Below the pieces are notes generated by a model. It was given only the letters and a program-made list of their open reading frames with translations. It searched no databases and was not told the DNA's origin. Shown in pieces: positions 4,955 through 34,165 of a stretch of 50,007 nucleotides of DNA; the stretch's first letter is position 1, and the number at the start of each line of letters is the position of its first letter. The position numbers and the translations under genes are program-made. This DNA comes from Minisyncoccota bacterium (GTDB lineage: Bacteria; Patescibacteriota; Minisyncoccia; Phycocordibacterales; UBA2100), in contig JAYWCB010000015.1 in NCBI GenBank assembly GCA_043780835.1, positions 1 to 50,007 of the forward strand. Reading direction: 5' to 3'.

Positions 4955-5027
4955 TGGTCTAGTGCACAGTCCTGGAAAGACTGCGTCTCGCAAGGGACCG
5001 AGAGTTCGAATCTCTCACCCTCCGCCA
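4940..5027 (+). tRNA. tRNA-Ser (anticodon GGA)
   Basis: GGAGGGT/ACCCTCC acceptor stem, CAGTC-CTGGAAA-GACTG anticodon arm, long variable arm, GTTCGAATC T-loop, encoded CCA. Confidence 0.95.
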
Positions 5028-5100
5028 TAAGTTTTTAGTATCGGACGTGTGTTGAGGGCTAGAAGGCATCCATATAACATAAATAAGCTATTATAAATGT

Positions 5101-5841
5101 ATGGAATCGCCTGAAAGGAAACCGAGGATTGACCCTCACAAGTCCTCACTAATAAACATTAAAGCAGAAAATTTAAAGGATATAAGAAAGGATTTCGGCT
5201 CCATGCACAGAATTGTGGAGGATCCTGAAGGTCGCCGTCTTTATGGAGGCGAGCACTTTCGTTTCGGGTCCGACCAAATGCTTCTTACGCGCATGCTAAA
5301 AGGTATTGTTAATGTGTCTGACGTCGTGTTTGTTAAAGATGAAAAAGGCGAGGGGAAATTTTATTCCTACGAACTTCCGCTTGAAGATTCATCACCGGAG
5401 TACGCGGAGAGATCAACAGACCTCTACAACGCAGACGCCGGGGTATTTATGCTCACTCATATTTTCCACGACGGAGATCATAAATGGCCCATGGCCAACA
5501 CAAGAGCACAATATCAACGCCACGCGTTTTTTGACTTTGAACATTTTGGTGGTTTTTGGAGAGATTTTTATGCTGGGAGGCCTGAGGAAATTAAGAAAGA
5601 TTTACAGGGCAAAGATACCTATTCAAAACAAATTCTCAGCACAAAGATAGAAGAACTGTTGCGGAGATTTGATGGAGAAGAGGGTTTAAATTTTCTGCAA
5701 TTTATTGTAAGTTCTATTGAAAAAGAAGGCGCCGGTGTCCCAAAAAGTATTCAGGAGGCGCCGGGGGAAGACAAGGTAACCGCTTTCCAAGCTGAACTAA
5801 TCAAGAGAATACAAAAGGTCAAAGCCCAAATTGAGGCTTAA
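5101..5841 (+). CDS. Hypothetical protein, possible HipA/PI3K-like kinase fold
   Basis: AT-rich 246-aa ORF; IFHDGDH-x5-N...FFDFE resembles the catalytic-loop and metal-binding motifs. Confidence 0.6.
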   Translation: MESPERKPRIDPHKSSLINIKAENLKDIRKDFGSMHRIVEDPEGRRLYGGEHFRFGSDQMLLTRMLKGIVNVSDVVFVKDEKGEGKFYSYELPLEDSSPEYAERSTDLYNADAGVFMLTHIFHDGDHKWPMANTRAQYQRHAFFDFEHFGGFWRDFYAGRPEEIKKDLQGKDTYSKQILSTKIEELLRRFDGEEGLNFLQFIVSSIEKEGAGVPKSIQEAPGEDKVTAFQAELIKRIQKVKAQIEA

Positions 5842-10905: not shown

Positions 10906-11466
10906 CTAAAATTGCACCTTAACCGGTTCGCGTGCGGCCTGATCGCTCTCGCTCAACGTAAAGAATTCACGCGTCTTGAAACCGAACATATTTGCAATAA
11001 TATTTGTCGGAAACTGCTCGATCGCATTCTGCAGATCCTGAACCACGCCGTTGTAAAAACGGCGTGCCGCTTGGATTTTGTTTTCGGTGTCGGAGAGCTC
11101 TCGCTGCAATTCAATGAAGTTAGCATTCGCTTTGAGATCCGGGTATGACTCTGAAAGCGCAAACACTGATTTGAGCGCACCTGTCAGCATGTTTTCCGCA
11201 GCAGCGTGTTCGTCGATTGTTTTTGCACCCATTGCCGCGGTGCGTGCTTCGGTAACTTTTTGTAATGTACCTGCTTCGTGCGCGGCATATCCTTTGACGG
11301 TTTCTACGAGATTTGGAATAAGATCGTAGCGACGCTTCATTTGCACGTCGATATCAGACCACGCCTCTTCGGATCGGTTAATAAGCGTCACAAACCGGTT
11401 GTACATCGCCACGAGATACAGTGCTACCAAAACGACGGCACCGATCAATATATAGAGTGTTGTCAT
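10906..11466 (-). CDS. lemA: LemA family protein
   Basis: WSDIDVQMKRRYDLIPNLVETVKGYAAHE, YPDLKAN, RRFYN. Confidence 0.95.
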   Translation of the reverse strand: MTTLYILIGAVVLVALYLVAMYNRFVTLINRSEEAWSDIDVQMKRRYDLIPNLVETVKGYAAHEAGTLQKVTEARTAAMGAKTIDEHAAAENMLTGALKSVFALSESYPDLKANANFIELQRELSDTENKIQAARRFYNGVVQDLQNAIEQFPTNIIANMFGFKTREFFTLSESDQAAREPVKVQF

Positions 11467-11511: not shown

Positions 11512-14500
11512 TTACTTCAGGAGAATCTGTACTGAACCAGTGGCGTAGACACCGTTACGACCATTGCAATAAACGATATAGGTAGAAGGTGCGGTAATTG
11601 CGCTTACCGTGAATGAGTCATTGCCCCCACCGGTCGCAATCTGCGTAGAGCTCGCATTAAACGCACTGCATTTGAGCGCATTTGTGCTTGTCCACGTGAT
11701 TGTCGTCGAGTCACCACTCGAAGCCGGATTCGGTGTCGCATTCACCTGTACAGAAATCGCACCAGTGGTAGCAGTCGGTTGTGAAGATTGAGTATTCTGA
11801 GGATTGAGCAGACTGCCCATTCCTTTCATCAGACCGGAAAGGAACGACATGATGCTATTGAACGCGCCGCCCGAATTTGTGCCGCCCGTCGGCGCAGAAC
11901 CGCCGGTTGAACCTCCCGTTCCGCCACCAGGTTTTTGAACGCCCGGTCCGGGGTTTGGATTTGGACTTGGTTTCGGTGTATCGGTGCGCGGCGCAGGCTG
12001 CGGTTTCGGCGCAGGTTTTGTTGGATCCGATTTCGCGGGAGCAGTGACCGGTGGAAAGACACTCGGATCAGCTGTTTTCGGTAGATTCGTGCCGGTCGTT
12101 ATATTGGGATTTACTGCGGGGGCGGATAACACTGCCGGTGGCGCTTTCGTACCGGCATTTTTTGGCATATTTGCGGGCGACGATGTTTGCTGCTGATCAG
12201 AATTCCCAACAAACGCTATGCCCGTGAGCAATGTCAGAATACTGCCCAGACGCCATGAGCGAAGCCCGCTTCCACTTCCACCTGATCCACTACCACCTCC
12301 TCCGCCTGCACTGGGTACTATCCCATTTCCTCCTCCCCCACCACTACCGAATTGAGCTTCCATCCACGTATTGAATCTTTGTCCCAACGTAGGCAGCGCT
12401 TGCGGAGCCAGTGGCGTAACTATAGGTGTTGCCGGAATTGTATTAGTCTGAGGTGCGACGAATCCTGCTTGAGCAAGAATAGAATCCGCTGCATCACGAG
12501 TCGGACCCGTGAGGTCACTCGTATACAAATCAAGCGCGTGTGTTGCCTCGAGCGGAAAACCTTCAACTTTCGGTATCGATGACTTACCACCAACCGCATT
12601 CGCAACCAAGACGACCCCCGTTTCGTGACGTAACTCTGCAATAAACCGCTCCGGATTTGCAATCAGTTCATAGTAGAAATAAATCGCCCGTGTTGTCGGA
12701 CTCCATGATCCGCCGTTTACGGCGGTTGGGAGCCCCGTTGCATCATCATGATAGAGCGGGGTGAGGCTCGTATCATGCGGCAATATCATCGCCATATCAG
12801 AGAGATTGCTCACACGCACCTTGCCCGTTGCGGAATCGGTACCTTTGAACTGCACATATTGAAACTTCGTGCCGTATCGTTCTTTGAGTGAATTGCTTAT
12901 TTCTCGTGCGAGTCCCACAAGTTGTTTCGCAGTAACAGTTTCCCCGTCCTGGATTTTTTTACTCACATCGTCGAGTGCTCGCAGTTCAGGATTCGCCGCA
13001 TAGATAGATTCACTAATCGTGCGTGTTTGCTCGAGCGTCAGTTTGCCGTCCGCGATTTGATCGGCAAAGAATCCTGCAGGTTGCGGAGGCATTGGTGCCG
13101 CGGCCACTGGAGTTTCGCTTGGCACGTTTTCTGCAGGCGTTGTTTGTGCGAATTGCGGCTCCGCACGGGGAGTTGGGTTTGCCTGATTGCTGGTTGCGTA
13201 AGAAGCGATCGATGAATATGCCCGTTTTACTGCTACAACAAAATCTCCACGGAATGCGCTGTTCGTAGCTGCACGATACAGAATATTTGCAACAGGAAGT
13301 GCGATCAGATGCGGTGCATTCACCGTAAACGAGGGCAGACTTATGGCTCCACTGAACAGCGATACAACATTCATCAACACATTGTCGAAATGCAACGAAA
13401 TGGGGGCACCGAATCCTGCAAACGTAAGCATTGTGCTGTTCATACCGATGACATATTTATTGTTTGAGAATTTCCGTGCAGGCAGAATTGCAGCACGCGC
13501 AAATGAGGCAACGAGTTTTATATCACTCCAAACCGAAGTCTTTTGTTTTGGTGCAGTCGTTTCTGGAGCAGCTGCGTTTGGCTGCGTTGCTTCCGGCTTT
13601 GCGGCTGTTACTGATTCCGGAGGCTGGGCTGATTCAGTTTGATTCGGTTGCGCACGCTGTGTGTTTCCTTTTGGCACACGGGCGCTTGATATCGGTGTTG
13701 GTGTAACTACGGGTTGAATTGGTGATACCGATTCAACGGAAAGCGTCGGCGGTGTAACGCTCGGGACGCTTACAGAATTAGTCGTCTTTGCCGTCGCAAC
13801 ACGGGGCGTGTTTTCGACTTGCACCACTGGAGTTTCTTTACTAATTGGCGCTCGTGGCTGACCGATGAAATTCCCCGCCGTGAACATGTTTCTCAGGTTA
13901 CCTATCTCTGTGCGCAAGAAGCCCAGTATGCTCGGCTTTATCGACACGACCGGTGTATTAGTTTGCGGATTTTGTTGGGCTACTACGTTTGGATTCCCAT
14001 CCGAAGCACGTTGAGTCCACGCTGCTTCCCATTCAGCAATGGTTCGCTCGCCATCAAAGTTAGACCAATATACTTCGGCAATGCTTGCGGCGCTTCCATT
14101 TGGATTTAACCACTCTCTAGGGTATCTGAAGTAACTGTCAGTCATCGAATACGGATTGAAGTTGTCTGCAACAGTGAATCGTTCGGGAACTGTAATTCGC
14201 ACGATCGTGCCCTCAAGACGAGCAGTAGGTCCGTAGAGATACGAGAGCGCACCGTCAAGACTAGGTGTGAAAAATTCGCCATTGCCCCTTGCGTCGGGAC
14301 TGTCGTAGGAATAACCCTGCGTTAAACCTCTATACATATAGCTGTATCCTGCCGGGGGCAACTCAAGACTTTCGAGATATCTTAGCGCTTCGGATCGGCT
14401 CATGCCCGTCATATCGATCGACACAAGACTCTTTACGGGGCCGGCACTATTGAAATTGTGTGCGGTGATGGCAGGTTCGGTAGCCGAATTTGTAGTGCGC

Positions 14501-17500
14501 GACGATTCAGGTGCATGGGTTTGGATTGCAATCTCGTTCGTGACGTTTTCTGTTGGAACTGTTATTTGTGTTGGAGCAATCGGCTGATTCAGCGTCACAT
14601 TGCCACCTGTTCGAGTATCCAATGTGCCTTGTATCGGACCTGATACCGTAGGAAGCGGAGCCTTTGGAAGCGCAGTCGGAATGGGCGGGACGGCCGGCGG
14701 CGTGTCGAGTCGACTCACCGTTTGGCCGTTTGTTTTTTCTTCGAGGCGGGGTCGACTATTCACACCAAGGGACTCAACGGGGCCAGACGGATTCCCTGGC
14801 TCTGGCGCAGGTTGCGGCGCGGTAATCTTTGCATTTTTCGGCGTCACCGCGGGAGCGGTTTCAGCAGCAATTGGAGCGCGCACTTGCGTTGCAGGTATTT
14901 GTATTAAATCTTCGAATGCATCGGCAATTTTTGTATGTGATCCGTTGGGGAGAGACTGTCCATTATCCACTCCCGTATTCGCAGAAGTGTCGTCTGGAGA
15001 GCCGATTTTGATAACGGGCTCAAACTTTGGAGGCAGCGCGAGCGTTGCCTCGAGCTCCGTTTTTTGTGCCACCGCTATAGCATCAGTAATTTTTGTTTTT
15101 TCTGACATTTTTGCGGCAATATCCTTGCCTGCGAGATCGAAATCAGCGCTCAACTTTTTATTTTGAATCGTGAGCTCCGGCGCTTTGCCCAACCCAACGA
15201 GTTTCTGAGTCATTTCCTTTATCAGGTTGTTCACATCGCTTGCGAGCGCCGCCCCATCGGTGACAGCGTCATTTTGATTTTCTTTCGTTTGATTTTCCTT
15301 TTGATTAAAAGAGCGCACATCGCTCGCATATACAAGCAGCTCCTTCGCCAACTGCGCATCACCCGACTTCGAGGCGATCGTTGCAAGACTTACCGCAGCA
15401 TCGGCTCCCGCATTCAGCGTGATCCGCTGAGCATCGGTAAGCTCTGATCGGACCGCTCTGCCGAGTCGAATACCCCGACGCATCGTCCCCAGTTTTTCTT
15501 GCGTAGAACTTATCGCACTCTGCGTATCTGCAATTTGTTTCAGTTTCGCTCTATTTGCAGCCGACGTGATCTTCATCGTATTCATTGCTTTAAGAGTTTC
15601 GGCAATCGATGTGTCCAAATCGGCTACTTGTTTCGCTAGCTCGACTACAGTTGGTTTTGCCGACTCAACCGGCGCAACTGATGTATCGGCCGGTTTTGTA
15701 GCGGTTTCTCCAGGTGTAACTACAGCCACATCTGCTTTGACGGGCGCAGATTGTTCGATAGGCGTAATGGGTTGGGGCGCATGTGCAACTTCTATGTTCT
15801 TTTCAATTTCATTATTCGCAATCGCCACTTCATCCTGCGTTGTAACGGGCGCATGCGCAGGTGCAACAGGCGTCTCTTCGTCGGACACATCCTCATCACT
15901 GTGAGTAAGTTTGCGCGCTACCGCATTTGCTTGTCCTGCCGCGAATATTTGTGGACCCGGCTTGATGCCGCTATTCGGCACGGTTACTTTGTAACCGCTT
16001 TGCTCAAAAATACCTTTCAAATATTCAAACGCGTTTTCATCCAGGTCTTTCCACGGAATGGAATCTAATTCACCCTGAGTAAACGAAATCGATTTTGTAG
16101 AGAATCGCACACTATTGAGCTTATGTATTATCGCAGCCGGCAGGTAATTAGCGGACGCCATCGACGAGTAGATCTGATTTTTCGCGTTCATCGGCGTAGC
16201 AATTTCAAAAACAGTCGAGGCAGGTGGACGTGATTTTGCAGTGGTTGCCGGCGTCTTCGTGTCGGAAGGTAAGGTTTCAACGGCAGCGATCGGACGACTT
16301 TCAGGCTTCAATGTTCCGACAAGCATCGTTTCCGGTGTATTCGATAATTCGTCTGTGGTGTTTGCAGATGACGGCGGGACTGATGCGGGAATAATTTTTA
16401 CCTCTGCAACTGCAGGCGCGTTATTGCTGCCTATACCGCGCGTTGGATTCAAAGCGAATTCGTTCGAAGTACCGTGTGTGCTTGGTGTCGTTGGTACAGT
16501 GTTCGATTGTGGTGCGTTTGCGTCGGTTCCGATCGTATTGGGCGTAACGGGTGCGCTTGTAATCCCAGGCTCACCATGCGTTGGCGCGATTGTAATCGAA
16601 GGTGCAACCGATTCGAGCGGAGCAGTGCCCAGACTTGAGGGGGTAATGACAAACACGCTCGGGCGCGAAGCAGGTAAAGCAATTTTTTTCCATGAATCCT
16701 TCTTATTTGAGCGTAACCAATCCGGCTCTGTGCCGAGCATCGCGAGAAGATCCGTGGGCCCGGAATCGATCGCCCCTTGATAAAATGCCTCTGCGCGTTG
16801 CACGCCCTGCGCATGGCGATCGTATGGTATCAGTGGATTTTTTATACCGTTTCCAACATCTGTGAAATCGCTCCCTGATGCGACAATTGAGTTTAAAAGA
16901 TGCTCCTGATCTCCTGCGCGCAACAAACCTGATCCGCGCATCATCCATCCAGCGGCACGATCCGCTAGCAACTCCTGCAACGCGCGCCTATCGAGACCGA
17001 CAGCATCCATCAATGGCGGGAATATGCTCTGGCCTTCGTTATTAATCGCTTGTATATCCACGTGTGTCAGACGCGCAAAGTAATGGCCAAGTTCGTGCGC
17101 GACTGTGTATACCGCATGGGTGCCATTTGTATCAAAGTAATCATATCGCGCGCGTTTGATTTCACTGGTGTCTATCCTAATCTGGCCCGTTTTCATATCT
17201 GTGACGCTACCCCCGCTCTTTACTATATTGATTTGGGCGGGACGATATTCACCGCCACGTTTTGCATATTCTTTGGCAAGAAAATCCTGAAGTGTTTTAC
17301 CCGAACTGCTGACGATCTGTCGAATTTGAGCGTCGCTCAGGTCGCGAATGTCTTTCGTCATAAGCGAATTTGTCTGATGCTGCAAACCCTGGATCTCAGG
17401 TAACGGTTTTGGTATCAAACGTTCCGCGACGCCCTCAGCCAAATCTTTGGGTAAATAAAAGCGTTCTTTGAGATCATTAAACTCGGAAACAGATCGACCA

Positions 17501-20500
17501 TTCACATTCGCCGACGACGGTGGGAGTGACGCGTTTTTTGGGAGCGTCGCCGGTGCGAGCGCTTCTGCAAGTAATGGTTCCGGCGTGGACGCCTGCTCGA
17601 TTCCCTTTGCGGTGAGCCCCGGGAACGGCGATACTACCGGCGCCGCCGTCGTGACAGAAGTCGGATTATTCAATGCCACGGTAATGGTGGGCTGCGTAAT
17701 AAGATTTGGTGTCGGTGCAAACGACGCGACCACCTCCGCAATATTATTAATTGCGATAGCAGGAGGTATCACGACAGGACTCAGTGGGCCGCCACTTTCG
17801 ACAGTCGGAACGGGATTCGCTTCAAGTGGTGCGGGTTGTGCTTCTGGCTGCGCTTCAGCGAGATCACTCCCCTTCGTCACATTCGGAATCGGATTCGCAG
17901 CAAGCGGCGTCGAAGCAGTGAGGGTCAATTCAGGAACAGGCATCACAGGTGTTGGCCACGAAACAGACTTCGCGGCATTGTATTGAACATTGGTTGCAAT
18001 CATCTCCGGCAAATCTGGCGCAACAAACGGATTTTTAGCCTCAATGATCGGTGCGGGTTCGTTACTGCTGAGTTTTGTAAATTCCGCAGCGGTATCACCG
18101 GTTGCAAGCGGGGCATCATTCGAAGGTGTAGCCGGTGTGTCATTCAGTTTCGAGTATTTCCACGGATCGATAGAATCAAGATCTGCGCTGGGTGCCACCG
18201 CAACATTTGACAACGTGTTTCCGGAACCCGGGACATACGCGATTTTACGCATTTCGGTAGCTAGCTGTGCTCCCTCGACATACTTTTCATTTTTGTAATC
18301 GGTCCATCCGTGGGCAAACACATTCTCTGCAGGAACGCCATATCGTTCCTGCAAGAATTTGACGAGTGCTGTTCCCGCTTTCATTTGCGCAGGTGTTAAT
18401 GGCTTTGTCACATCCGGGAAATTGCCGGCAAATTCAATGCCGATCGCATTTAGATTCGAGATATTCTTAAACGTATCTTTATTTGGGACGAATTTATTAT
18501 CGTTTCTGTTTGCCCGCACGTGACTCGGGTTTGCGGTTTCCGGAGCGGCCCAATACACCGTTCCGTCGGGCTCCACCCACAGTGTTGTGCCGACTTTATT
18601 TGGACGCGCCGCTTGCTGCTGCGCCATAGGGAGCGCTGTTGATCCCTCGGTCTGGTGAATAACAATATACTTGCGCGGATTGGCCTTTGCCGGATCGCTC
18701 AGCGGCGCGAGATATACCATCTTTTCGATTCCGGGAATCTGCGGTTTGCCGGACTGTTTCGCCGCTTGCGCAAGCGACAGCGTTGGCTGCGGAGCGTTTT
18801 TGAGCGCAAATGCTCGCTGCGCAATTTTCACATCGGCAGCTGCAAGGTCTTTGTCAGTTACACCACCGTCGCTGTCGCTTCGTCCGGTGACTTCGTGTGC
18901 AGCACGAGCACGCATCGCGTTATAAATATCAGTGTTCTGCAGACCGGCATTCTGTAAGCGTGCTGCAATGTCTACGCGCGAAGCGTTTGCCGGAGCTTTA
19001 TTTACGATGTCAGCCGCCTGATTTTCAGGCACGCCTTCTGATAGATTCTTTAGACCACGCGTGAGCACATCATTAATCGCAGTAAAAGGATTCGCCGCCG
19101 GTGCTGGCGCCGCGTTCGGCTTCGGCGCCGGCTTTGATGCAGTCTTTGGCTCTGATGCCGGCGCCTGGGCAATAGCAGTATTCGGATTTGTGCGGACCTC
19201 TGCGAGACGCGTTTCAAACGTACCGGACGGCACCACCCCACCATCTGAAAGATCAGTGCGATTTGTTTTGTACGCCGCCTCTTGGAGTGTCGGTACCGAA
19301 TCCACAAAATATTCAACATCAATTACTCCCGGCCCTATTGCCCCAAGCGCTCGTGCAGCAGCAGGAGAGAGATCCATTACCCTCCCGGTTTGTGAACCGG
19401 TGCTTGCTACGCGCACGCGAACAGTCTTTCCGAAGTCCGCAGTTGGAGTGCCTTTGGAATCACGCGATACATTTCGCACGATTAGTTCTGTTTTCCAAGC
19501 ATACTTCGGCCCGTCACCAAGCATCGCTACAGTGAAGTCTGTTAGATTATGCATTGATCCCGATGCATTCATGTCGCTCGGATTGAGCCCGCCGTTCGAA
19601 CCCGTATTCCACCAACTCGCCTTGCCTTTATTTACAATGGCGAGATCGTAATCACGTTTCGCATTCTCGAGCCTATCGATGTCGCGCTTGGTCGGTTTTG
19701 CCTGCGCCGAGGATATGAACGGATTACCGATTTGTGACGGCAACGAACCAAGCCATTCACTCCACGTTTTAGATTGTGTCACCCCAAGGTCACTTCGCTT
19801 TCCGAGATTCGGCGGCTTTGGTGCAGGCTTTGATGCATTTTTTGGGTCTGATGCCGGTGCCCGCGCAATAGCGCTTGACGGATCTTTTTTCACCGCTGCA
19901 ATGCGCGCATCGTATTCTTGCGGTGAAATCAATCCTTCTCCGTTTAAATCCTCTCGACCTAATTTATATCTGGCAGTTTGTTCAGTTGGAACTTCGACGA
20001 CCGTGTACTCGACAGCCGTAGTTCCGTCTTCAAAGAAGCCCATGTCCTTCGCGCCTTTTGGCGAAAAATCTAAATTACGACCTTTTTGTGATCCGATGTT
20101 ATTGACTGTATATACTCCAGTTTTCCCAAAGTTTGGATTTGATGTTTTACCGTCTGCTTTGAATTGTTGTATGTTTCGTACGAGTAATTTTGTTCCCCAT
20201 GCGTATCTCGGCGCATCGCCCAAAAGTGCAACTGTATTATCGTTCACGGTATGGATTGCCCCTGATGCCGTTATATCGCTCGGATTAAGCGCATCGTTTG
20301 CAGCCAATTCGTAATACGACGCGACACCCTTTTCTGTTATGCCGATATTATTTTCCGCATCTTTCAACCGTTTCAGATCTCGTTGTGATAGACCTGGTTC
20401 TGCTTGAGCTGGTGATATGAACGGATTACCGAGTTGTGTCGGTAACGAAGCAAACCAGTCACTCCACGTTTGAGATTGTGATGCTCCAAGATCACTTCGC

Positions 20501-23500: not shown

Positions 23501-26500
23501 CCGACAACACCTGTCGGTAAGCCTTGCGCAGCACGCTGTTCCGCAAGTGCAGCTTCGGCGGCCGGTGTGGATCTTCCCGCGATTGATGAATCGATCGCGC
23601 CGCCCGCCGATTGTCGCATTGCAAAACTTCCGTCCGCATTGCGTACCACTTCAAAACGCGGTTTTTGATATCCCTCACCAGGGACTGCGCTGCGCGGATT
23701 ATTTGCGGCAAAGTCCTTCAGCGCAGACTCCCGTTGCACCGCAGCTTCGCTCACACGCTCCGCAGCCGTCTTCGGAGCGGTCGGTTCCGTACGTGCCGCA
23801 GCAGTATTTTCACTCGCGGGTACTCGCTCGCTAACAGCCGGTTCAACTGTGCGGGGCGCTGATGTTTCCGTGGCTCCGGATTTTGATGTGGCCGGCTCTG
23901 TTGCAGATCGTCCCGAGGCCGTATCTGCAGCTGTGGCAGTTCTACCTGCCGCTGCATCTACTGATTCTGAACCACTGCGTGCCGTGAGTGTTTCGTTACC
24001 GTAGCGTGCCGTTATCGCCTCGCCTGTTTCTGAGCCCACCTGGGAGGCGCCCAGTGACGATCGCGTATCAGCTCCGATGAGAGCACCGCTGTCTGCACTC
24101 AATGCTCTTGAACTTGCAACGGCATCCGTCAGTGCAGCCGTACGAGATTCGTTGGCCAATCCTTGAGTTGCTATACCTTCAAATGCACTTCCTTCAAGTG
24201 CGCGAGCACTTGCGATCGTATCGCCTATCGTACTTGCAAAACCTTCTCTCAGCGTCGATGCGACACCAATCGATGCGTCGTAGGCAAGCCTTCCGACGCT
24301 CGGGGCAGCAGCGACGTTCGCAAAATCCAATAGACCCTGCGCAAATCTTTCTCCGGACGTTTGCGTGAGCGAGTTCACCTGATCAGCGACCGTGGCTAGT
24401 CCTTGCGCGCCAGGCAGTGCACCTGCCAAAAGATTTGCTGCGGAGTCATAGGTGGCGGCGACAATACCGGTCGTAAGCGCACTCGCATACGAGATCGGAT
24501 TGTATCCAGCTTTATCCCACATACTTGATGCAGTTTGATGTAAGTAGTCTGAAATTCCCTGACTTACATTGTGTACTGGATCTGTGCCGGACAATGATCT
24601 ACTGAGATCTTGCGCAGCCTGATTCGGCTGGCCTCCCGGCGCGTACTGTGTGATGTGATTGTCAGCCGCAGCCATTCTTTGTTCTGAACGCGAGATGTCG
24701 TTGGCCATCGCGGCATTTTCAGCATTCAGCCGCGTGATTTGCTGAGTGTCATATGGTCCCCGTGCACCTGACGCTTCGAGCGCAGTAATTGTCCGCTCAT
24801 TTGCGTCCATTTTTGCCTGAATAGCAGTGACTTCCTTGTTTGATGTCGTCCATGTATTAAGCTCCTCCAGCGCAGCCTTTTGATCGCCGGTGCGCGCGTT
24901 TGGATCCGTGAGCAACGCCTGCGAAATAAATTCGGCATTATTGCTTTTAGCAAGATAATCACGAGTTGCCGCTATGTCTGCGGCGGTTTTGCCTGCCACT
25001 GCAGACAACTTTGCTTGCTCTTGTGCGATGTCGCGAGCCATGGCGGCATTTTCAGCATTGAGCCGAATAATTTGCTGTGTGTCGTATGGACCCCGCGAAT
25101 CCGACGCCTTTAGTGCTGCGATCGCTCGCTCGTTCGCGTCTATCTTTGCTTGTGTAGCATCAATTTCCGCGTTTTTTCCTGGCGTCCGAGCTGCGGTTTC
25201 CGCCGCTAATTGCCGATCACTCAGTACCTGATCGACTTTCGTTGCCGCAGTTTCTGCCGAGGGTCTCGCGAGCGGCTCAGTCGGTGCGTCTTGTAATTGC
25301 CCTATCTTTGATTGGTCCTGCAAACTCGCCTGATACTGCTGCTGCAGGATCTGAGCCTGAGGTGCGACATTATTCTTTAATTCAGTGAGCAGTCCTCGCT
25401 GTGCTTCGGCAAGAGTTTGTGTTGGCGTAAATCCTGTTTCCGTTTGGAAATTGTTTAGTGTTCTATTTGCTTCGTTGAGTGCCGTTGCGTAGTTGGATGC
25501 GCTTTGTGCGGAGCACGCAAGGGTGGTGCACGAGGCATCTGTCACTCGCTGAGCCGCATCCATCGCCTGTTGATTCACATCCGCACGGACTGTCTGATTA
25601 GCCACTTCGTTAATGGCGTTCAGATCCGTCGCGGCAGAAGCAACGATTTTTGCAGAGTCGTTGTACGCGTCAGTCGGTGCATGAAAACGCTCTCCGTCAA
25701 ATGTCGCACCATTCGTATCTAGTTGTTCCACAGCATTCGATATGACGTTCTGTCGCATCTGGATCAGATCATCTACCGAAGCGTTTGGGCTGTACTCTTT
25801 TATCTGTGCGATTTGCGCATCGATCTTTGCCACCTGCGCCTGAGCCGATTGCACCGTTTGTGCGTCAGCGGGAGCAAGTCCTGCGGTTGTAATTCTGCCC
25901 TCAGACAACGCTTTTGCGACAGCAGGATCCGTTGCATCCATACTGGTGTTATCGCTCTGCAGACTGACTAACCTGTCGTATCGTGCGGCGGCAGCTTGGT
26001 ATGCATTCAGTGCCTGCTTTACTTCACCTGCACCATTGCCGCATTTTGACAGTGATCCTCCCAGACAGTTATCGGCAATAACTTCGTCAAGCGCCGCTTT
26101 TGCATCGTCAGCTTTGCTTTTTCGGGCATCCAATTCCTGTTTACCTAATTTTTGTAAGTCGCCATCCGTGATCTGATTGTTGGGATTTTTCTCGTTAAAT
26201 TTTTCGGCGGCAGCCGCGCATTTCGGTCCGACTCCTGAACCGCACTCGGCCGCGACGGCGTCCATCGCCTTTTGTTGCTCAGGCGAGAGCGGCGGATCTT
26301 TTGGTGTGGGTTTTATGTCCTCACTCACCTGAGCTTTACAAATTGCATCGTCACCGCAAGCAGCTAAATCGGCTGTTTTTCTCGCTTCAGGCGTATCATC
26401 TGTCTTAAGCGGTACCGGATCTGCATCGGAGCTCGGACTACCCTCCGTGAGGGCCGCGTACTTATCGGCCACAGCTTCACCCGCTGACCGCACATCACCC

Positions 26501-27468: not shown

Positions 27469-27474
27469 CGCTAA

Positions 27475-27483
27475 ATTGTAGCA
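27475..27483 (-). promoter_or_regulatory. Extended -10 promoter of the 5318-aa gene
   Basis: TGCTACAAT 6 nt before the ATG; same motif before the 2126-aa gene. Confidence 0.7.
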
Positions 27484-27548
27484 GTAAAATCCTGATTTTA
27501 CGGCTCTACCTGTGGAGATTGGAAGACTTTTTATTGAGCAAAAAAACA

Positions 27549-30500
27549 CTACTGAACCCGTACGGTAATCGTGCTTGAGCTCGTCGCGCCCGCTGCATTG
27601 ATGCATGTAGCCGTGAACGGGGTCGTCATAAACAACGGAGCGGTACTCGTTGAACCATCGATACTGCCATCAGTGAGCTCCGCAGTGGAAGTCGCCTTCA
27701 GTGAGCAGCGCGTCGCGTGCCCACTTCCCCATATGAGAATGGCGGATGATCCCGCGTCTAAAGAAGTTGGATCTGCATGCAGCGTAACCGTGGGCGGCGG
27801 CGGCACACTGACGGGAATGTTACACGCTGCAACCGGGCTTGCTTGGGTGCCCAATACACACTGGAGCAAGAAGCGGATAGTGGAGGTGGAACGCGATGAC
27901 GAAGTCTGCGTTATTCGTCCTGACGGTGCTCCGCCCGTGGCAAACCCTGTCGAACTTGCCGATCCGGTAAGGCACGACCACGAAACGGTCACCGGTGTCG
28001 TCGTACCAAAGGCCACTGTCGGCGGCGAACATATAAGAGCCGGCGTAAGCGGCGGCAAAATAATCGGATTCGTAATCGGTGGTACCTGCGACGAAGTTGG
28101 ATTCGGTCGCTGATATGGAGGCTGTGCTGCAGTCGATCCACCGGAGGATTGTGCACCGCCGGTTGGTTGCGATCCGCCTGTCGGCTGCGTACCTCCGGTT
28201 GGTTGCGATCCACCGGTCGGAGTACACGCATACAATGATCCGTCGTTCGCGACGCAGGTAGAGGTCGGACGCGATGTTGAATAATCCGACTGCGTCCAGT
28301 CGCGATTGTTCGGTGCGCGGAAGCCCGGGCGTTTTTCAACCGGCTTATCAGGTCGCTCATCTTGAATATCTAATTTGTTTGGATCTTGCGCATTTGGCGA
28401 TGCTTTCGGTAACGTTGCATCGCTCGATGCAAGCAGAGGCGCGGTTCCGTCAGTGATCGATTTTCCGTCCGCGCCGAGCGGCTTACCGTCGGCGCCCGAT
28501 AGCATTCGCGTCGTGCCGTCAGGTGAAACGGCATTCGGTTGCAGCGGTACGTTTTCTGCAACTTTTGCGCCACTCTCATCTGTAATGGTGTACGTCGGAA
28601 CTCCGGTGCCCGGAACGTATTTCATTTCGCGTGCAATTTTCTCCATTTCCGCACCCTCAGCTGCCGGTGCGCTACTTGGTCCCGTTTTTCCATGTTTAAA
28701 GATTTGATTAGATGAAAGATCGTAGCGCTCCTGCAGATATTGCATGAGTTGTTTACCTGCCTCAATTTGTTGCGGCGAAAGTCTTTGACCGATGTGTCCT
28801 TCAAATTCGATACCAACAGTATTGTCGTTTAGTAAGTGCTGTGCGTCCGGTGGTTTATTGATGCCGATATGCCCGGTCGTGACTTCGGGTCGTGTGTGCA
28901 AAATCGTTCCGTCTGCGAGTACCCACCACTCGGTCCCTTGCGAATGTAGACCATTAAATGTTTGCGCGCGAGCAGTATTGAGTCCACTCCCCCATCTACC
29001 GGCCGATTGGTGCGAAATAATTCCATCACGTCGCGGTGCTTTGCCGGGATCGTTCATCGGATACCATGAATCCACTTTCGCGCCCGGAATAACCGGATGG
29101 CCTCCGGCCTTTGCAATAGCCGTCAGAGGATTTGCAACGACACCATTACTGAGCTCTGCCTTGAAGTTTTTGAACTGTGCACCGTCGGGTAATTTTCCGT
29201 TCTGCGCCAATCGCTCCATCGCTTCTTCTTCGCGAACCGCGCGCGTGAACTTTTCACTCGGAATTGAAGTAGACGTATACACCGCCCCCGTGTGTGCCGA
29301 TTGCGCGCACATTGCCGATCCCTCGCACGACGCTGCTCGTTGTATTCCCGGTGTACGGCCGTCTTTGCCCGGTTCGATTGTCGGCGCAGTTGCACAACCC
29401 TTGTAGCTGCAGGCGACAACTGGCGCTCCGGTATACGGCACGTATGAATCACCGTCGGCTAGCCTCCGCATAAAGTCGATGCCTTTGTCGATCTGTTCAC
29501 CCTTTGCCTGCAACACTTGTTGTGCAGCATATGCAACATTTGCTCCTTGCGGCACGAATGCCCAGCCCTGTTTATTGTATGCGGCAACCGCAGCTGGAAT
29601 CAGAATCTTATCAGCACTGAAGCCGCCCTTAAATGTGGCCGGTGCGAGTTGTGCATGCATCATGTATGCCGCAGCGAGGCGTGGATCATCCGTCATTGCA
29701 CTCACGATATTCATTGTCCCTTGCGCTGCATGTAGACCCGTGAGTAACCACGGACCGAGATGAGAATCTGTATTCGGGTTTTGTCCCGCATCGATCATTG
29801 CCCTCGCTCGCGCTGCAACGTCGCGCATCGCTGATTGCTCTTCTGGTGAAAGACGTGATGACTGCGCTATCTCGGCGAGCTTGGCAGTGGCTCGATTCGT
29901 TTCATCGCTACCAAGCTGACCGTATCCCTGATACGGACTGCCGGGATGCGGAATTTGCGCATGACCGCCGGACTCAATCGATGCGATGCCACTCAGTGCT
30001 TCCGACATCACGCGCGCATTACATCCCACGGCTTTACACACTGAGTTTACCGAATTCACGAGCTGCGCACCCGAGGCCGGGTTGAATTGCCCCGGAATGT
30101 TTGGAGCATTTTTGGGAGGCAGTATTGAAGCGTTCTTCGGAGGCGTGGCCGGAGTTTGCGGGGGAGATGGCGGCGATTGTCCTTCTACTTTTGACGTGGG
30201 CTTTTCATTTGCCGGCGGGGTTTCTGTTTTTGGAGGCGCAGGCTTTTGTGCCACTGTCGGTGGAGCGTCGGGCGCCTTGGTATTTGTGGTCACCGGTGCG
30301 GTTGCTTGTGGTTCGGTAGGCTTTAGCGACCCGATTATAAATGCTGACGTTAATGTAAGTGCTCTACCGTCTGACAACACCTTATCGGACGCAGCTTTTA
30401 GATCTAGACCTTTTGAAATTGTGCACACGGGATTCTGGCACTTCTGATACTGAGAATATTGTGGACCAAGAGCCCGTGCCTGTTGCACATAATTCAAAAT

Positions 30501-33500
30501 CTTTCCACCGAGGTCTCCGCCGAGCGTTTTACCCATTTTTTCTGCCTGGAGCAGGCCTTTTTCAATACTTTTATTTTCCTCCGCTGTTCCCTCTTTTTTG
30601 GTTTCTAAATTGTTTCTAAAGGTATCGAGTCCTTGCTTAACTTCGGTGACCTGACGCTTCAGCGTCTCGATTTCATCACGTGAAAGTGATGGCGGTGTGT
30701 CGGTTCGATTTGAGACTTGCACAATCGGTTGAACGAGGGGTTTGTTATTCAAGATGTTCTGCCACGGATTCGTTGGCGTCTCTGCAGTCACGCCTTGCTG
30801 ATTGGCGTCAAAAGTTGCATCAACCACATTGTCTTGTGGTTTCGGCTGCTCGGTGGCAGGCCTCGGTGTAACTTTCGAGGTAAGCGGAATATTTGCGGAG
30901 TCATTTCCGACAGGTTTCGGCTGCACGCTCGCTGGCGCGCTTGGATTCGTGACGGTGCAATTCCCACCGGGACACTCTCCTGGTGGAATATCTTTTGGAA
31001 GTGTATTTGCGGGAGGGGTCTGAGAATTTACGGGAGGAGTTACGGGCGGATTCGAACCGGGATTTGATGGGTTATTTTGTGCAGGCACGTTTGTGGTGCC
31101 TTCTGATGATGGCATGGTAGGCGCACTCGGTGCAGCATTATTTGTACTAAACAATCCGCCCAATATTTTTCCGATCGCGTCACTAAAGTATGGAATGTTT
31201 TGCAAAATTTTCGGAACACTTGAATTGGTAGGCGTGTTCGATGGCAGCGGCGTTTTGCCGCTCGTCGAAGGATTCGCATTTGATCCATCACCCTTTGCGT
31301 CCGGCACCGTTTGACCGCCCTTTGACGGTTGCGCTGTGCTGCCATCCGGACTTTCAGCAACCGACGGCGCCTTTGCGGTCTGAGGAGCACCACTTGGATC
31401 CTGCCGGTTGCCACCTGGTGCAGGTTTTGCACTTCCGCTTGGATCGCCAGGGCCCGGCGTTTTGTCGGGCGACGCTCCTTCTCCCGATCCGCCATTTTGA
31501 CCGCTTCCGGACGGTCCCGGTTCAGATGATGGTTTTCCGGTCGTTCCTGGTTTTTGTGCGTTTTCTCCGCCCGGTTGATTACCTTCACCATTCGTGGGTG
31601 TTTGAGTACCTTCAACCACATTCGGATTATTCGGATTTGCGGATGGCCTGCCTTCTTGGTTTAGATTTTCGGGCGGCGACACGTCTCCTGCTTCTGGATT
31701 CCAATGACCGGGAAGCTGCGTATTTGATTCATGCGTTCCCGGAGTCGGTGCGCCTTTTGTGGATTCCGGAACAACCTGGCCCGACGCATCCGGTAGTCCG
31801 TTTTTGAAAGGTGTTTCAGAAATATTCGGCGACGCTTTTTCTGCTCCTGTTACATCATTGAGTCCGTCGGGATTTGGCTTGTCATTAGTACCCGGTATTC
31901 CTGTCGGCTCTCCATTCGGTGCATTGTTTGCATCGCCCGAGCCCCCCTGATTACTTGAACCCTCTGGAGTTGAAGCCGGTGATCGAGTTGAAGGAGCTCC
32001 TGGTCCTGGCCTCGTAACTACGGGTTCATTGGTTTCTGGTTGGCCCAATTTTATTCCTGTTTCTTCTGATGCAGATTTGGGTATACCTATATCTGCTTTC
32101 GGTCCCGTTCCGTTTGGACTTAGATTTGTGTCGCCACCAGTTGCGCCTGGAGGAAGTTGTTCGATCCATTTGCCGTTCAGATTTTCGCTTGGAAGCGGTA
32201 ATCCTTTCGCCTCGTCTTGAAACGATGGGGATTCTTGCCCAACACCCTGACCACCGGTCGTCATTCCAGGATTGGCATTATTTGACTGGGAACCATAAAT
32301 TGAATCAGCTGAAGGATTATGTGTGCCTGCCCAGTCTCGCGTAGCGGGCATACTATCGAAAATTGTATTGCTTAGCTTTGGCGGTGGTTCGAAGTCGCCC
32401 GATCCCGCATTTTGCGCAGTATTTGCAGGGGATGTAGCTTTAGGTTCTGAAAATAAAAAAGATTCCGTGCCGCGGGTAGAGGGCGAAAATTTTCCATTAT
32501 CCACCATGCCGATCTCATATCCGGGAGCACCATTCTGATTCAATTGAGCAAGATTCTTTACAGGACTATCAGTAACAGGCACCTGATATGAACCTGAACT
32601 ATTCGGATTTGAAGGGTCCGGTGCTGTGTAGGGAATAGCCGATCCGGACGCCGTTTTTTGTGCGGCGGAAACTGTAAATTCTTCCGCGGATCCAATCTTT
32701 TCTAGAGGCAGTGGATTCGTCGGTGAATTCCCGGTTCCATCTGACTGTGCAACATCGCGCAAAGTAGTTCCGCCGGAATTCGCGGCGTTTGCATCCATTG
32801 GATATACATTTCCAAATTGATCAGATACATACACTGCGCGCCCGCCATCTTTGTATCCCGTCTGAGTAGAGAGTGTCCCCTCCCCGGCAATGCCATCCAC
32901 TTTTATACTCGTAGGACCAGATCCGCTCGTGCTGTTACCTGCAGGTACAGATGTGGGCGCTGCATCCGCTGCCACTTCCGGCCATTTAGTCCAGTCTCCC
33001 GCATTCGGTCCGGCTATACCAAGGTCGGATTTGTAACTCGCTTGCACAATAGGCAGATCACTTCGGGTATTCCCGCCCACAATCGTATCCGTTCCACTCG
33101 GTTCAAGGCCAGCTGCGAATTCATTTTGCTGGAATCCTGTGACAAATGAAGATTGTGTTTGCGGCGACGTCTGTATTTGTGTATCAACGCCGCGGTCCAT
33201 TCCATCACTACCGCCTGGATTACTTATGATCGATTGGATTTGGTCACTAAAAGTATTCGGTGGCTGAAATCCCCGTGTCTGTCCACTGGGAATGTCGACC
33301 GGCTGTGGATTAAATGCGCGATCAATCAAACTTTCCGTTCGTGGCGCAGCGGGTACCTCCGCCGGATTCGAACTGTTCGTATCGGGTATGGGATCTACAG
33401 ATTTTTTCTCGAGAGTACTGAGCGAATCTTCTAATCTTTTTTGTTCCTCGGTTTTATCAGGCTTCGGCACATCACTTGTCTTACTGCTACCGCCGCTGCC

Positions 33501-33929
33501 GCTTCCACTGCCGCTGCTTCCCCCGGGAGGACTGGGCACTCCCGGTGGCGTACCACCGTCTTGCTTCGGCGCAGTCGTCTGTCCCGGCTTACAATTTCCT
33601 GCCTCTAAACACGTCTGTACAGGTCGCCCTTCCGCATCTTTCGTCTCTTTTTTGTTACCAATACATTGCACCTTTGCATTACATTTACCGACTATCGTTT
33701 TCTTACTCACTTCGTCGGTTTCTTGACACTTACAGTTCAGCCCTCCTTTCAAACCGGTCGGCTTACCGTTTCTACCGATTTGATCCTTGTCGCATTGCGT
33801 ATCGTACGCCTTCTTTTCACTACATTTAAGATCGGCTGCGTTCGCAATTCCATACGGATACAAATATGTAATCGCTAAAAAAGCCCCGATGAACACGAGG
33901 AAAAAGGCCGCAGGGCGACGCGAGAGCAT
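27549..33929 (-). CDS. Giant secreted protein (about 2126 aa): P/G/S/T-rich stalk, SLT/lysozyme-like domain, amidase_2, two C-terminal Ig-like repeats
   Basis: Signal peptide MLSRRPAAFFLVFIGAF...ANA; IASIESGG..YQGYGQ; IISHQS..VGIEFEG..IFKHG; W-x-C beta-rich tail. Confidence 0.85.
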   Translation of the reverse strand: MLSRRPAAFFLVFIGAFLAITYLYPYGIANAADLKCSEKKAYDTQCDKDQIGRNGKPTGLKGGLNCKCQETDEVSKKTIVGKCNAKVQCIGNKKETKDAEGRPVQTCLEAGNCKPGQTTAPKQDGGTPPGVPSPPGGSSGSGSGSGGSSKTSDVPKPDKTEEQKRLEDSLSTLEKKSVDPIPDTNSSNPAEVPAAPRTESLIDRAFNPQPVDIPSGQTRGFQPPNTFSDQIQSIISNPGGSDGMDRGVDTQIQTSPQTQSSFVTGFQQNEFAAGLEPSGTDTIVGGNTRSDLPIVQASYKSDLGIAGPNAGDWTKWPEVAADAAPTSVPAGNSTSGSGPTSIKVDGIAGEGTLSTQTGYKDGGRAVYVSDQFGNVYPMDANAANSGGTTLRDVAQSDGTGNSPTNPLPLEKIGSAEEFTVSAAQKTASGSAIPYTAPDPSNPNSSGSYQVPVTDSPVKNLAQLNQNGAPGYEIGMVDNGKFSPSTRGTESFLFSEPKATSPANTAQNAGSGDFEPPPKLSNTIFDSMPATRDWAGTHNPSADSIYGSQSNNANPGMTTGGQGVGQESPSFQDEAKGLPLPSENLNGKWIEQLPPGATGGDTNLSPNGTGPKADIGIPKSASEETGIKLGQPETNEPVVTRPGPGAPSTRSPASTPEGSSNQGGSGDANNAPNGEPTGIPGTNDKPNPDGLNDVTGAEKASPNISETPFKNGLPDASGQVVPESTKGAPTPGTHESNTQLPGHWNPEAGDVSPPENLNQEGRPSANPNNPNVVEGTQTPTNGEGNQPGGENAQKPGTTGKPSSEPGPSGSGQNGGSGEGASPDKTPGPGDPSGSAKPAPGGNRQDPSGAPQTAKAPSVAESPDGSTAQPSKGGQTVPDAKGDGSNANPSTSGKTPLPSNTPTNSSVPKILQNIPYFSDAIGKILGGLFSTNNAAPSAPTMPSSEGTTNVPAQNNPSNPGSNPPVTPPVNSQTPPANTLPKDIPPGECPGGNCTVTNPSAPASVQPKPVGNDSANIPLTSKVTPRPATEQPKPQDNVVDATFDANQQGVTAETPTNPWQNILNNKPLVQPIVQVSNRTDTPPSLSRDEIETLKRQVTEVKQGLDTFRNNLETKKEGTAEENKSIEKGLLQAEKMGKTLGGDLGGKILNYVQQARALGPQYSQYQKCQNPVCTISKGLDLKAASDKVLSDGRALTLTSAFIIGSLKPTEPQATAPVTTNTKAPDAPPTVAQKPAPPKTETPPANEKPTSKVEGQSPPSPPQTPATPPKNASILPPKNAPNIPGQFNPASGAQLVNSVNSVCKAVGCNARVMSEALSGIASIESGGHAQIPHPGSPYQGYGQLGSDETNRATAKLAEIAQSSRLSPEEQSAMRDVAARARAMIDAGQNPNTDSHLGPWLLTGLHAAQGTMNIVSAMTDDPRLAAAYMMHAQLAPATFKGGFSADKILIPAAVAAYNKQGWAFVPQGANVAYAAQQVLQAKGEQIDKGIDFMRRLADGDSYVPYTGAPVVACSYKGCATAPTIEPGKDGRTPGIQRAASCEGSAMCAQSAHTGAVYTSTSIPSEKFTRAVREEEAMERLAQNGKLPDGAQFKNFKAELSNGVVANPLTAIAKAGGHPVIPGAKVDSWYPMNDPGKAPRRDGIISHQSAGRWGSGLNTARAQTFNGLHSQGTEWWVLADGTILHTRPEVTTGHIGINKPPDAQHLLNDNTVGIEFEGHIGQRLSPQQIEAGKQLMQYLQERYDLSSNQIFKHGKTGPSSAPAAEGAEMEKIAREMKYVPGTGVPTYTITDESGAKVAENVPLQPNAVSPDGTTRMLSGADGKPLGADGKSITDGTAPLLASSDATLPKASPNAQDPNKLDIQDERPDKPVEKRPGFRAPNNRDWTQSDYSTSRPTSTCVANDGSLYACTPTGGSQPTGGTQPTGGSQPTGGAQSSGGSTAAQPPYQRPNPTSSQVPPITNPIILPPLTPALICSPPTVAFGTTTPVTVSWSCLTGSASSTGFATGGAPSGRITQTSSSRSTSTIRFLLQCVLGTQASPVAACNIPVSVPPPPTVTLHADPTSLDAGSSAILIWGSGHATRCSLKATSTAELTDGSIDGSTSTAPLFMTTPFTATCINAAGATSSSTITVRVQ

Positions 33930-33935
33930 TACTAA

Positions 33936-33944
33936 ATTGTAGCA
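33936..33944 (-). promoter_or_regulatory. Extended -10 promoter of the 2126-aa gene
   Basis: TGCTACAAT 6 nt before the ATG. Confidence 0.7.
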
Positions 33945-34060
33945 GTAGAGCCACGCAAATCGTCTCATTGCGTGGCTCTACATGGGGACATTTTATGAAT
34001 CGGAAGCGAGCGTCGGCATTCAGTTTTTAGGGCTCTCGAGCTTCACCGCCTCAGTGAAGT

Positions 34061-34158
34061 TCGGAAACCTTTGCAAGAACCCTCGGGAGGCGCGACTGGC
34101 GCCGGACGGAAGAAAATTTCACCAGAAATTTTCTGTGGTTCTTGCAAAGGTGTTCCGA
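34061..34158. repeat. Nested palindromic element downstream of groEL
   Basis: 15-bp perfect IR 34067-34081/34137-34151 enclosing agaaaatttc/gaaattttct. Confidence 0.75.
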
Positions 34159-34165
34159 CGGAACG

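Follow-up and report, generated by a model that had tools for sequence, protein, structure and literature searches.

The 50,007-nucleotide (nt) window analyzed here, positions 1 to 50,007 of contig JAYWCB010000015.1 (assembly GCA_043780835.1) from a Minisyncoccota bacterium, carries between groEL and lemA two tandem genes, A and B, which are predicted to encode giant exported proteins of 2126 and 5318 amino acids (aa). They appear to belong to a family that is constant at its ends and variable in between: an export segment and a Cys-rich head of ~90 aa open the chain, a terminal W-x-C domain closes it, and long disordered spacers carry what seems to be interchangeable cargo. The cargo here is likely to be mainly peptidoglycan-directed, with an SLT-like module and a MurNAc-L-Ala amidase in A, and two RlpA-type barrels, an amidase, a YpfJ-type Zn peptidase and other modules in B. 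From this architecture it is proposed, with middling confidence, that A and B represent a family of exported, modular, wall-attacking proteins, either tethered to the surface or released, that would be aimed at non-self cells.

The window is contig C15 of genome G000, which holds 1,245,101 bases in 17 contigs and is 95.8% complete. A first-pass annotation, made from the sequence of the stretch alone, had placed the organism among the Patescibacteria, and this is correct: the organism is Kaiserbacteria-like, its genome measures 1.25 Mb, those of relatives within its genus and order range from 0.5 to 1.6 Mb, and the nearest relatives of its GroEL (75–82% identity) are assigned to Candidatus Paceibacterota, Candidatus Kaiserbacteria and the Patescibacteria group. 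Relatives are labeled below as G303, G302 and so forth; the genus set consists of 116 genomes, 82 of them of high quality, and the order was sampled with 201.

Two giant genes with a common layout

All features of A and B described in this text lie on the minus strand. Open reading frame (ORF) A covers 27549..33968 (2139 aa of open frame) and ORF B covers 11512..27606 (5364 aa). Counted from an MLSRR methionine, with the stop codon included, gene A spans 27549..33929 and gene B 11512..27468, as given by ORF and translation and, for B, also by Logan contigs; the 2126 and 5318 aa that had been reported for two co-oriented frames are thereby reproduced. These lengths were adopted because the two proteins share the MLSRR methionine and the hydrophobic stretch, and because ~20 nt upstream of the two start codons are near-identical. 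Residue numbers refer to the open frames, in which the start of gene A at 33929 is residue 14 and that of gene B at 27468 is residue 47.

The common layout that had been described for the two proteins is borne out: both show an N-terminal hydrophobic segment, a Cys-rich head, P/S/T/G-rich spacers and related C-termini. Kyte-Doolittle analysis gives a single strongly hydrophobic segment per protein, which is N-terminal and followed by an AxA motif. In A this is a putative signal peptide or signal anchor at residues 14–45 (33834..33929), ending in ...ANA/AD and the sole segment of the protein with a hydropathy of at least 1.5; in B the corresponding signal peptide or anchor (...ARA/EG) and the Cys-rich head together occupy residues 47–170 (27097..27468), as delimited by hydropathy and by the head alignment and profile. 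An internal membrane-spanning topology was considered and dropped, as the sole strongly hydrophobic segment is the N-terminal one. Nearly all cysteines of A and B lie close together in twos, a pattern typical of extracytoplasmic proteins. Both proteins are predicted to be Sec-exported and extracytoplasmic, with an N-terminal segment that would serve as a cleaved signal or as an anchor.

The head, which defines the family, covers residues 46–130 of A (33579..33833). The heads of A and B align with those of two small paralogs of the same genome, 526 and 578 aa in length and in tandem on contig C10 (~85.9–89.3 kb), which have the same signal, head and terminal domain; no enzyme module is recognizable in these paralogs. 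In A the head is followed by a P/S/T/G/N/Q-rich low-complexity spacer at residues 131–1080 (30729..33578), defined by composition and unalignable with that of the G303 orthologue; a composition scan gave PSTGNQ fractions of 0.5–0.78 across residues 121–1080 of A and across several stretches of B. The C-terminus of A is formed by presumably beta-rich W-x-C modules (residues 1965–2139; 27552..28076) common to the paralogs and to B. The conserved C-terminal region of B (residues 5031–5364; 11515..12516), common to giants of G302, G296 and G303, is Gly-rich, Pro-rich and then forms a W-x-C domain (Cys 5313, Cys 5347). The two C-termini match each other in BLASTP at E 6e-5 with 35% identity over 52 aa, and are also linked through the C-terminus of a relative's giant. 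Elsewhere in the genome, contig C13 (295–2445 of the extracted locus) encodes a 716-aa, Gly-rich, secreted-looking protein with several W-S-S-T-N-A-x-x-C repeats related to the terminal domain of the giants.

The sequence of the locus was compared with Logan contigs of sequencing run X1, which were built by an independent assembler and show 0 differences over 14501–21895 and 21970–34500; X1 may be the source sample. These contigs leave positions 21896–21969 unbridged, a stretch skipped as a repeat. Runs X2–X4 of the same study contributed short, low-depth pieces only. The repeat is a hexanucleotide in 8 copies (21914..21961; Tandem Repeats Finder and translation) that encodes (Asn-Thr)n in B and preserves the reading frame at any copy number; its length could vary among strains.

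Peptidoglycan-directed modules

By motif, the first-pass annotation had assigned two amidases, an SLT-like domain, two RlpA-like barrels and a Zn peptidase to the two chains. The amidases hold, as does the peptidase by transitive homology; the barrels are detected by profile, but their canonical Asp is missing, and the SLT-like domain is upheld by profile-profile similarity and motifs, but not by a sequence match to Pfam or the PDB.

Both amidases score above the Pfam cut-off for Amidase_2 (PF01510; N-acetylmuramoyl-L-alanine amidase of the T7 lysozyme/AmpD/PGRP type), with 40.1 bits for A and 59.6 bits for B at the protein level against a cut-off of 26. The module of A lies at residues 1648–1762 (28683..29027; Pfam E 5.4e-10, 45.8 bits in the six-frame search, PDB entry 7f5i at E 0.012) and that of B at residues 2976–3100 (18307..18681; Pfam E 5.4e-16, 65.7 bits in the six-frame search). 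A first His, the Glu of GIEFEG, a second His and then a Glu-Gly are conserved in A, B and four relatives, and both His align with those of a solved amidase. As in AmpD and T7 lysozyme, the two His would bind Zn, along with a third ligand, and the Glu would be catalytic.

The two barrels of B directly precede its amidase and were detected with DPBB_1 (PF03330). Module 1 (residues 2425–2560; 19927..20334) reaches 17.9 bits and matches module 2 with 39% identity (E 2.3e-33); module 2 (residues 2650–2790; 19237..19659) scores 31.5 bits in isolation, 24.6 within the half-protein and 28.1 in the six-frame genome search, the cut-off being 28.8. At the position of the Asp in the 'DRGP' motif, presumably the catalytic residue of RlpA, module 1 has Asn and module 2 has Ser. 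The Asp of 'D-R/T-G' is kept in all eight canonical DPBBs examined in the order, and is replaced by N or S in the giant-borne modules of B and of two relatives. As this Asp is replaced, the DPBB modules may bind denuded glycan rather than cut it. A SPOR domain, as found in RlpA, was absent from the Pfam scans of B.

The SLT-like (lysozyme-like) module lies at residues 1285–1560 of A (29289..30116). In an alignment of six sequences E48, S49, G64, G66, Q67 and L68 are invariant, and in a comparison with 12 true SLT domains of the order hhalign returned a probability of 82.3% (E 1e-5, 78 columns), in which the Glu-Ser and the G-x-G-Q-L of the module align with the catalytic Glu-Ser and the GLMQ of SLT. 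Neither the module nor its five homologues gave a Pfam match at E up to 1, and no PDB sequence or profile match was obtained; PF01464 (SLT) has no match anywhere in the genome. The assignment is put forward with moderate confidence. A database scan for loci related to the C-terminal enzyme region of A found nothing.

The YpfJ-type Zn metallopeptidase module (AHELGHY...E-LxAD...; B residues 3351–3672, 16591..17556) was identified by transitive homology. In an alignment of eight sequences from giants of the genus H164, E165, H168 and E205 are invariant, corresponding to HExxH and a downstream Glu; seven of the eight match PF04228 (Zn_peptidase), the best at E 4.8e-15, and the module of the window is joined to its homologues by jackhmmer at E ~1e-100. 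The alignments of the Zn and SLT-like modules gave no significant match to PDB profiles. Single-sequence searches against PDB sequences returned the amidase and Gly-linker artefacts only, and NCBIfam only a sub-threshold AmpD row.

A variable locus between groEL and lemA

The gene order around the giants is conserved among relatives: RNase J, a solute-binding protein, groEL, the head-bearing genes, and then lemA, DUF2207 and an M48 peptidase. The slot between groEL and lemA/M48 measures 22.4 kb here, holds other giants in G303, G302, G226, G278 and G305, and in one relative contains head proteins of 758 and 456 aa. Among nine loci with both flanks visible it is occupied in seven and empty in two, where gaps of ~0.4–0.5 kb are seen. 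A head gene directly follows groEL in five of the eight closest GroEL loci; of the remaining three, one breaks off where groEL ends. By gene order and content, the slot is an accessory, hypervariable one within a housekeeping neighborhood.

The head profile matches 84 of the 116 genus genomes (66 of the 82 of high quality), and at the order level only four of the 201 sampled genomes, this one included. Head-bearing open frames range from ~300 to 6295 aa, many of them being 400–600 aa; frames of at least 1500 aa number 25 in 24 other genomes of the genus. The terminal domain is present in 41 of 80 head-bearing ORF pieces, and in 39 of those 41 its end lies no more than 15 aa from that of the ORF; many of the remaining pieces are cut by locus or contig ends. 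A tandem pair in G303, 2247 and 4585 aa, mirrors A and B. In the G303 orthologue of A (2247 aa), the head and residues 1258–2138 are conserved, and the middle and spacer are unalignable.

A search of related genomes for the same N- and C-termini around variable internal domains, the check that had been suggested for this architecture, gave a positive result with the head and end profiles, block comparison and Pfam. The blocks of B (second DPBB with amidase, Zn module, residues 3705–4202, C-terminal 330 aa) are each common to a different subset of giants; the block of second DPBB and amidase is conserved in giants of three relatives, and any part of residues 1590–4560 of B is matched in only 21 of the 116 genus genomes. 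The DPBB-amidase region of B recurs in only three giants among the 5.8 billion clusters of a database, one named 'hypothetical protein' (Kaiserbacteria) and two lacking a source name. Pfam searches with 14 pieces of the giants of 13 relatives recovered Amidase_2 three times, Zn_peptidase three times, Zeta_toxin three times and DPBB_1 twice, along with single cases of PG_binding_1, Peptidase_M15_3, DEAD, NAGPA, SHOCT_2 and GDSL lipase. A conserved N-terminal part combined with variable modules among relatives, the arrangement by which polymorphic toxins are recognized, is thus seen in this family at the level of sequence.

The three Zeta_toxin (P-loop kinase) matches are above the Pfam cut-off and inside head-bearing giants, at ~aa 3540–3655 in G302, ~aa 2318 in G305 and ~aa 2027 in G010. 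In the G302 giant this module is positioned just upstream of the sole homologue of a segment of B that had been called ART-like (see below). The tentative DEAD/DEAH helicase match (E 6.3e-5) falls within a secreted giant of one relative and is unexpected for an exported protein.

Function and alternative explanations

Under the proposed reading, one conserved end would keep the chain at or near the producer, and the spacers would let the enzyme modules reach a neighboring cell. There the amidases would remove stem peptides; the SLT-like module, perhaps together with the DPBB modules, would bind or cut the denuded glycan, and the wall of another cell, be it host, prey or competitor, would thus be opened. 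RlpA requires denuded glycan and is thought to act in tandem with amidases, as described in the part of the work on septal RlpA drawn on here (PMC6895207), and the adjacency of DPBB and amidase modules on B fits this need. Secreted peptidoglycan hydrolases and giant surface proteins have both been proposed as host-interaction factors in candidate phyla radiation (CPR) bacteria, as set out in portions of the Vampirococcus study (PMC8080830). In this picture the tethering, the reach, the catalysis and the target cell are inferred. The host-attack interpretation of the first-pass annotation is retained insofar as giant size, predicted export and a modular build are seen, the low-complexity chains bearing peptidoglycan-cleaving modules; its choice of a host rather than a competitor as the target, and the claim that the cell is perforated, did not find support.

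Several observations weigh against a wall-attacking role. The giants have no evident immunity-like neighbor, the downstream lemA, DUF2207 and M48 genes being present at empty sites as well. About half of B (~453–869, 1318–2403 and 4476–5031) is without recognizable function or relative. In each of the two DPBB modules another residue stands in for the 'DRGP' Asp, the SLT-like call is drawn from the 82% hhalign match and motifs only, and the window's own Zn module gives no Pfam match at E up to 1. In addition, all Amidase_2 and DPBB matches of their own 95.8% complete genome fall within the giants, and neither Amidase_3 nor a canonical SLT was found in it; M23 peptidases are present elsewhere in it, with four matches above cut-off and one weak match. 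As the giants are the sole source of Amidase_2 and DPBB, they could have a role on the producer's own wall. It is this last point, together with the model of amidase and RlpA acting in tandem at the proteobacterial septum (PMC6895207, in the part cited), that would favor a self-directed autolysin used in remodeling or splitting the own wall during growth, division or the insertion of a pilus or channel. The distribution of the modules speaks against it: Amidase_2 is present in 12 of the 116 genus genomes (9 of the 82 of high quality), 8 of the 14 matches being in frames of at least 1500 aa, so that 104 genomes show none. Growth in most of the related bacteria evidently does not depend on these modules, and this speaks against a core autolysin. 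The few genomes that match residues 1590–4560 of B, the two empty slots among nine and the variation of slot content by species point the same way, and chains of two to five thousand residues with unalignable spacers are not expected of a housekeeping enzyme. The refuting case named by the first-pass annotation, that of a housekeeping autolysin, is made unlikely by these counts, and the autolysin explanation as a whole is judged quite improbable.

The chains could instead be surface adhesins or fibrils that bind a partner cell or matrix, with enzyme-like modules that act as glycan or peptide binders. Both DPBB modules lack the 'DRGP' Asp, the spacers are long, the terminal W-x-C modules appear beta-rich, a relative carries PG_binding_1, and giant membrane proteins of CPR bacteria are generally read as attachment factors (PMC8080830, in the portions used). 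This explanation is nevertheless unlikely: the amidase His, Glu and His are retained in A, B and relatives, HExxH with its downstream Glu and the Glu-Ser are invariant in the Zn and SLT-like modules, respectively, and the Zeta-toxin kinases and M15 peptidase of relatives are non-binding modules. A classical polymorphic toxin system, in which a trafficking head, swappable toxins and immunity proteins would serve competition among related bacteria, shares the conserved head and mosaic cargo as well as the Zeta-toxin modules of three relatives, and a Sec-dependent class with lineage-specific N-terminal domains has been described (Zhang et al. 2012, PMC3482391, in the sections cited); it is considered improbable to a marked degree, as several cargo modules sit inside the chain, a conserved domain that is not a toxin forms the extreme C-terminus, no small immunity-like gene is adjacent, the downstream genes are conserved flank genes, and RHS, filamentous-haemagglutinin and processing-protease modules were absent from the Pfam scans. 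It could finally be argued that the giant frames are chimeras or a read-through of several genes, as metagenome assemblies can mis-join repeats and B holds a simple repeat. That an artefact of assembly or annotation is involved is extremely improbable: the 16-kb and 6.4-kb frames run without a stop, the repeat keeps the frame whatever its copy number, the independent contigs agree without differences on both sides of it, and relatives show the same tandem pair and end domains. A phage origin, as a tape-measure protein or virion lysin, was also considered and dropped, since signal peptides are predicted, the chromosomal flanks are conserved and PHROG matches are absent.

A further-reaching version of the wall-attack reading is doubtful but worth stating. 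The groEL–lemA slot would then be the cargo-swapping locus of an undescribed family of Sec-dependent effectors, whose tethered giants first open the wall of a partner by means of amidase and glycan-cleaving modules and in some species also deliver intracellular modules such as Zeta-type UDP-N-acetylglucosamine (UNAG) kinases. Such a giant would be a device for attacking host or prey that is built on one polypeptide and needs neither a dedicated secretion machine nor an immunity gene.

Comparison with known systems

Likenesses to several described systems can be listed, each of which is incomplete; the sources are compared in the parts accessible to this analysis. Sec-exported polymorphic toxins (Zhang et al. 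2012, PMC3482391) have a lineage-specific N-terminal domain after the signal peptide, a long stalk, swappable enzymatic modules that include peptidoglycan-directed ones, and fast-evolving loci of the kind found in biological conflict. The giants share these features but differ in that their cargo is internal and made up of several modules and their C-terminus is conserved; searches for RHS or filamentous repeats, for a releasing peptidase and for an immunity gene alongside found none. The tandem of RlpA and amidase at the septum (PMC6895207) likewise combines a DPBB with a MurNAc-L-Ala amidase, and B has two DPBBs directly upstream of an amidase on one chain; unlike RlpA, B has no SPOR domain or lipoprotein anchor, has N or S in place of the 'DRGP' Asp, and carries modules that are accessory in the genus.

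Other comparisons concern giant proteins of small bacteria. The CPR predator Vampirococcus lugosii (PMC8080830) is also a patescibacterium, and its giants of 1392–4163 aa have been read as host-attachment factors and its separate secreted peptidoglycan hydrolases as degraders of the host wall. In that organism the two functions lie on separate proteins and the giants carry WD40, TPR and PKD-type domains, whereas here the hydrolases are embedded in the giants. The giants of Omnitrophota ('Archaeovorins', bioRxiv 10.1101/2023.11.21.568195) likewise belong to ultra-small, probably host-dependent bacteria, are proposed to bind and degrade the wall of another cell, and in some cases include SLT-type domains; they come from another phylum, show no sequence relationship that could be seen, and feature glycosyltransferase, TPR and GGDEF-type domains in contrast to the Cys-rich head, amidases, DPBBs and Zn peptidase described here. 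Giant1-5 of Apilactobacillus kunkeei (PMC12863079), extracellular proteins of 3000–8000 aa encoded by consecutive genes that make up several percent of the DNA in a small genome, are likened to A and B by description only. By its sequence features the present family is set apart from these systems: it combines a Cys-rich head and a conserved terminal domain with several internal cargo modules, shows neither an immunity gene nor a dedicated secretion system, and occupies a fixed but hypervariable slot beside groEL. No description of the family was found in the literature, supplementary tables, which may list comparable proteins, being outside the scope of that search.

Other modules of B

Two further segments of B had been named in the first-pass annotation as JAB-like and ART-like modules, and neither name was confirmed. 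The 'JAB-like' module (residues 2000–2345; 20572..21609) was recognized by the motif HNHP...PSPPD, of which HxH...PSxxD is invariant in three sequences, and is otherwise a near-orphan with no profile match or solved relative. Across the three sequences H82, H84, P113, S114 and D117 are invariant, and an upstream Glu is present in two of three; in what we take to be the canonical JAB metal motif, HxH...SxxD, the spacing is shorter than in this module. Homologues amount to one match among 1.84 billion representatives (253 aa, E 4.5e-4) and a 367-aa secreted-looking protein of a genus genome. No Pfam match, with two relatives included, and no PHROG match was obtained, and PDB profile rows were at chance level; PF14464 (Prok-JAB) has no match in the genome and is present in one of 121 sampled genomes of the phylum. 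The AlphaFold2 (AF2) model, with a mean pLDDT of 48, is too poor for use, and the best ESM Atlas score, 0.81, was to unnamed viral clusters and provides no lead. A JAB identity of this module is possible.

The 'ART-like' module (residues 4385–4545; 13972..14454) has the one homologue mentioned above, in the G302 giant, at 24% identity (pairwise E 1e-8). It gave no Pfam, PHROG or PDB-profile match, and two database searches returned no homologue of near or longer length. Language-model leads in the ESM Atlas, at 0.87–0.88, were to PARP, Tox-ART-HYD1 and Exotoxin A clusters; few features are shared and these leads are weak. In the AF2 model (pLDDT 55) the confident part is a simple beta-alpha-beta-alpha-beta unit. 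Foldseek found no match to this low-confidence model at E up to 0.001, and VIA-align, run against 48,161 chains, peaked at Z 3.7 with generic alpha/beta designs and listed no ART chain; because the model is of low confidence, these comparisons are uninformative on the fold. An ART identity is unsupported by family, PDB or fold comparison.

The remaining segments are defined by composition or conservation. Residues 346–1010 (24577..26571) form an Ala/Gln/Glu-rich, probably helical region that has no family match and contains four close Cys pairs (417/423, 455/463, 514/522 and 693/698). An internal duplication of ~60 aa (residues ~805–870 and ~900–965; window ~24700–25200) can be read from its translation, with the motif ...QAK-x-DANER-x-I-x-AL-x-AS...GPYDTQQI-x-RLNAENAAMA.... 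A small domain of ~90 aa at residues 1724–1806 (22189..22437) has homologues in the genus and no Pfam match; N-H-G, G-F-x-T and R-F-V-x-R-x-E-A are invariant in it, and in five genomes of the genus it also occurs free-standing, in ORFs of 109–132 aa that lack a signal peptide. The block at residues 3705–4202 (15001..16494), partly coiled-coil-like, is common to the giants of four to seven relatives and has no family match. Residues 4830–5075 (12382..13119) appear globular from composition, with no Pfam or PHROG match and no homologue among the fetched giants. PHROG searches with eight unassigned segments returned nothing except one weak family of unknown function.

Gene starts

The ~20 nt that precede both MLSRR start codons are nearly identical and consist of TGCTACAAT plus 6 nt, with no Shine-Dalgarno sequence, as seen in the upstream alignment. 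The element resembles an extended -10 box and is located at 33936..33944 for A and at 27475..27483 for B, in each case 6 nt upstream of the start codon and in B within the 80-nt spacer between the two genes. From this arrangement we infer that each gene has its own promoter and that its mRNA is leaderless. The same -10-like design is present upstream of both small paralogs and of several unrelated genes of the window; as it recurs at unrelated genes, it is a habit of the organism and nothing particular to the giants. In ~40 nt upstream of 21 likely genes of the window, many show no Shine-Dalgarno sequence but a -10 box of the TAnnnT type 6–8 nt before the start codon, for example those at 10906–11466, 45375–46100, 46146–46883 and 5101–5841; leaderless mRNAs may thus be frequent in this organism.

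Significance

To our knowledge, the mode by which ultra-small, host-dependent Patescibacteria breach other cells is largely unknown beyond a few cultured Saccharibacteria. The family described here, with its defined enzyme modules, is a concrete candidate for how Patescibacteria may breach and exploit other cells, and a hypervariable locus that extends across the genus allows cargo to be compared in more than 80 genomes. An amidase naturally paired with RlpA-type barrels that lack the usual Asp bears on how DPBB domains recognize denuded glycan. The giants also include several near-orphan modules, namely the JAB-like and 'ART-like' segments and the ~90-aa domain that is also free-standing.

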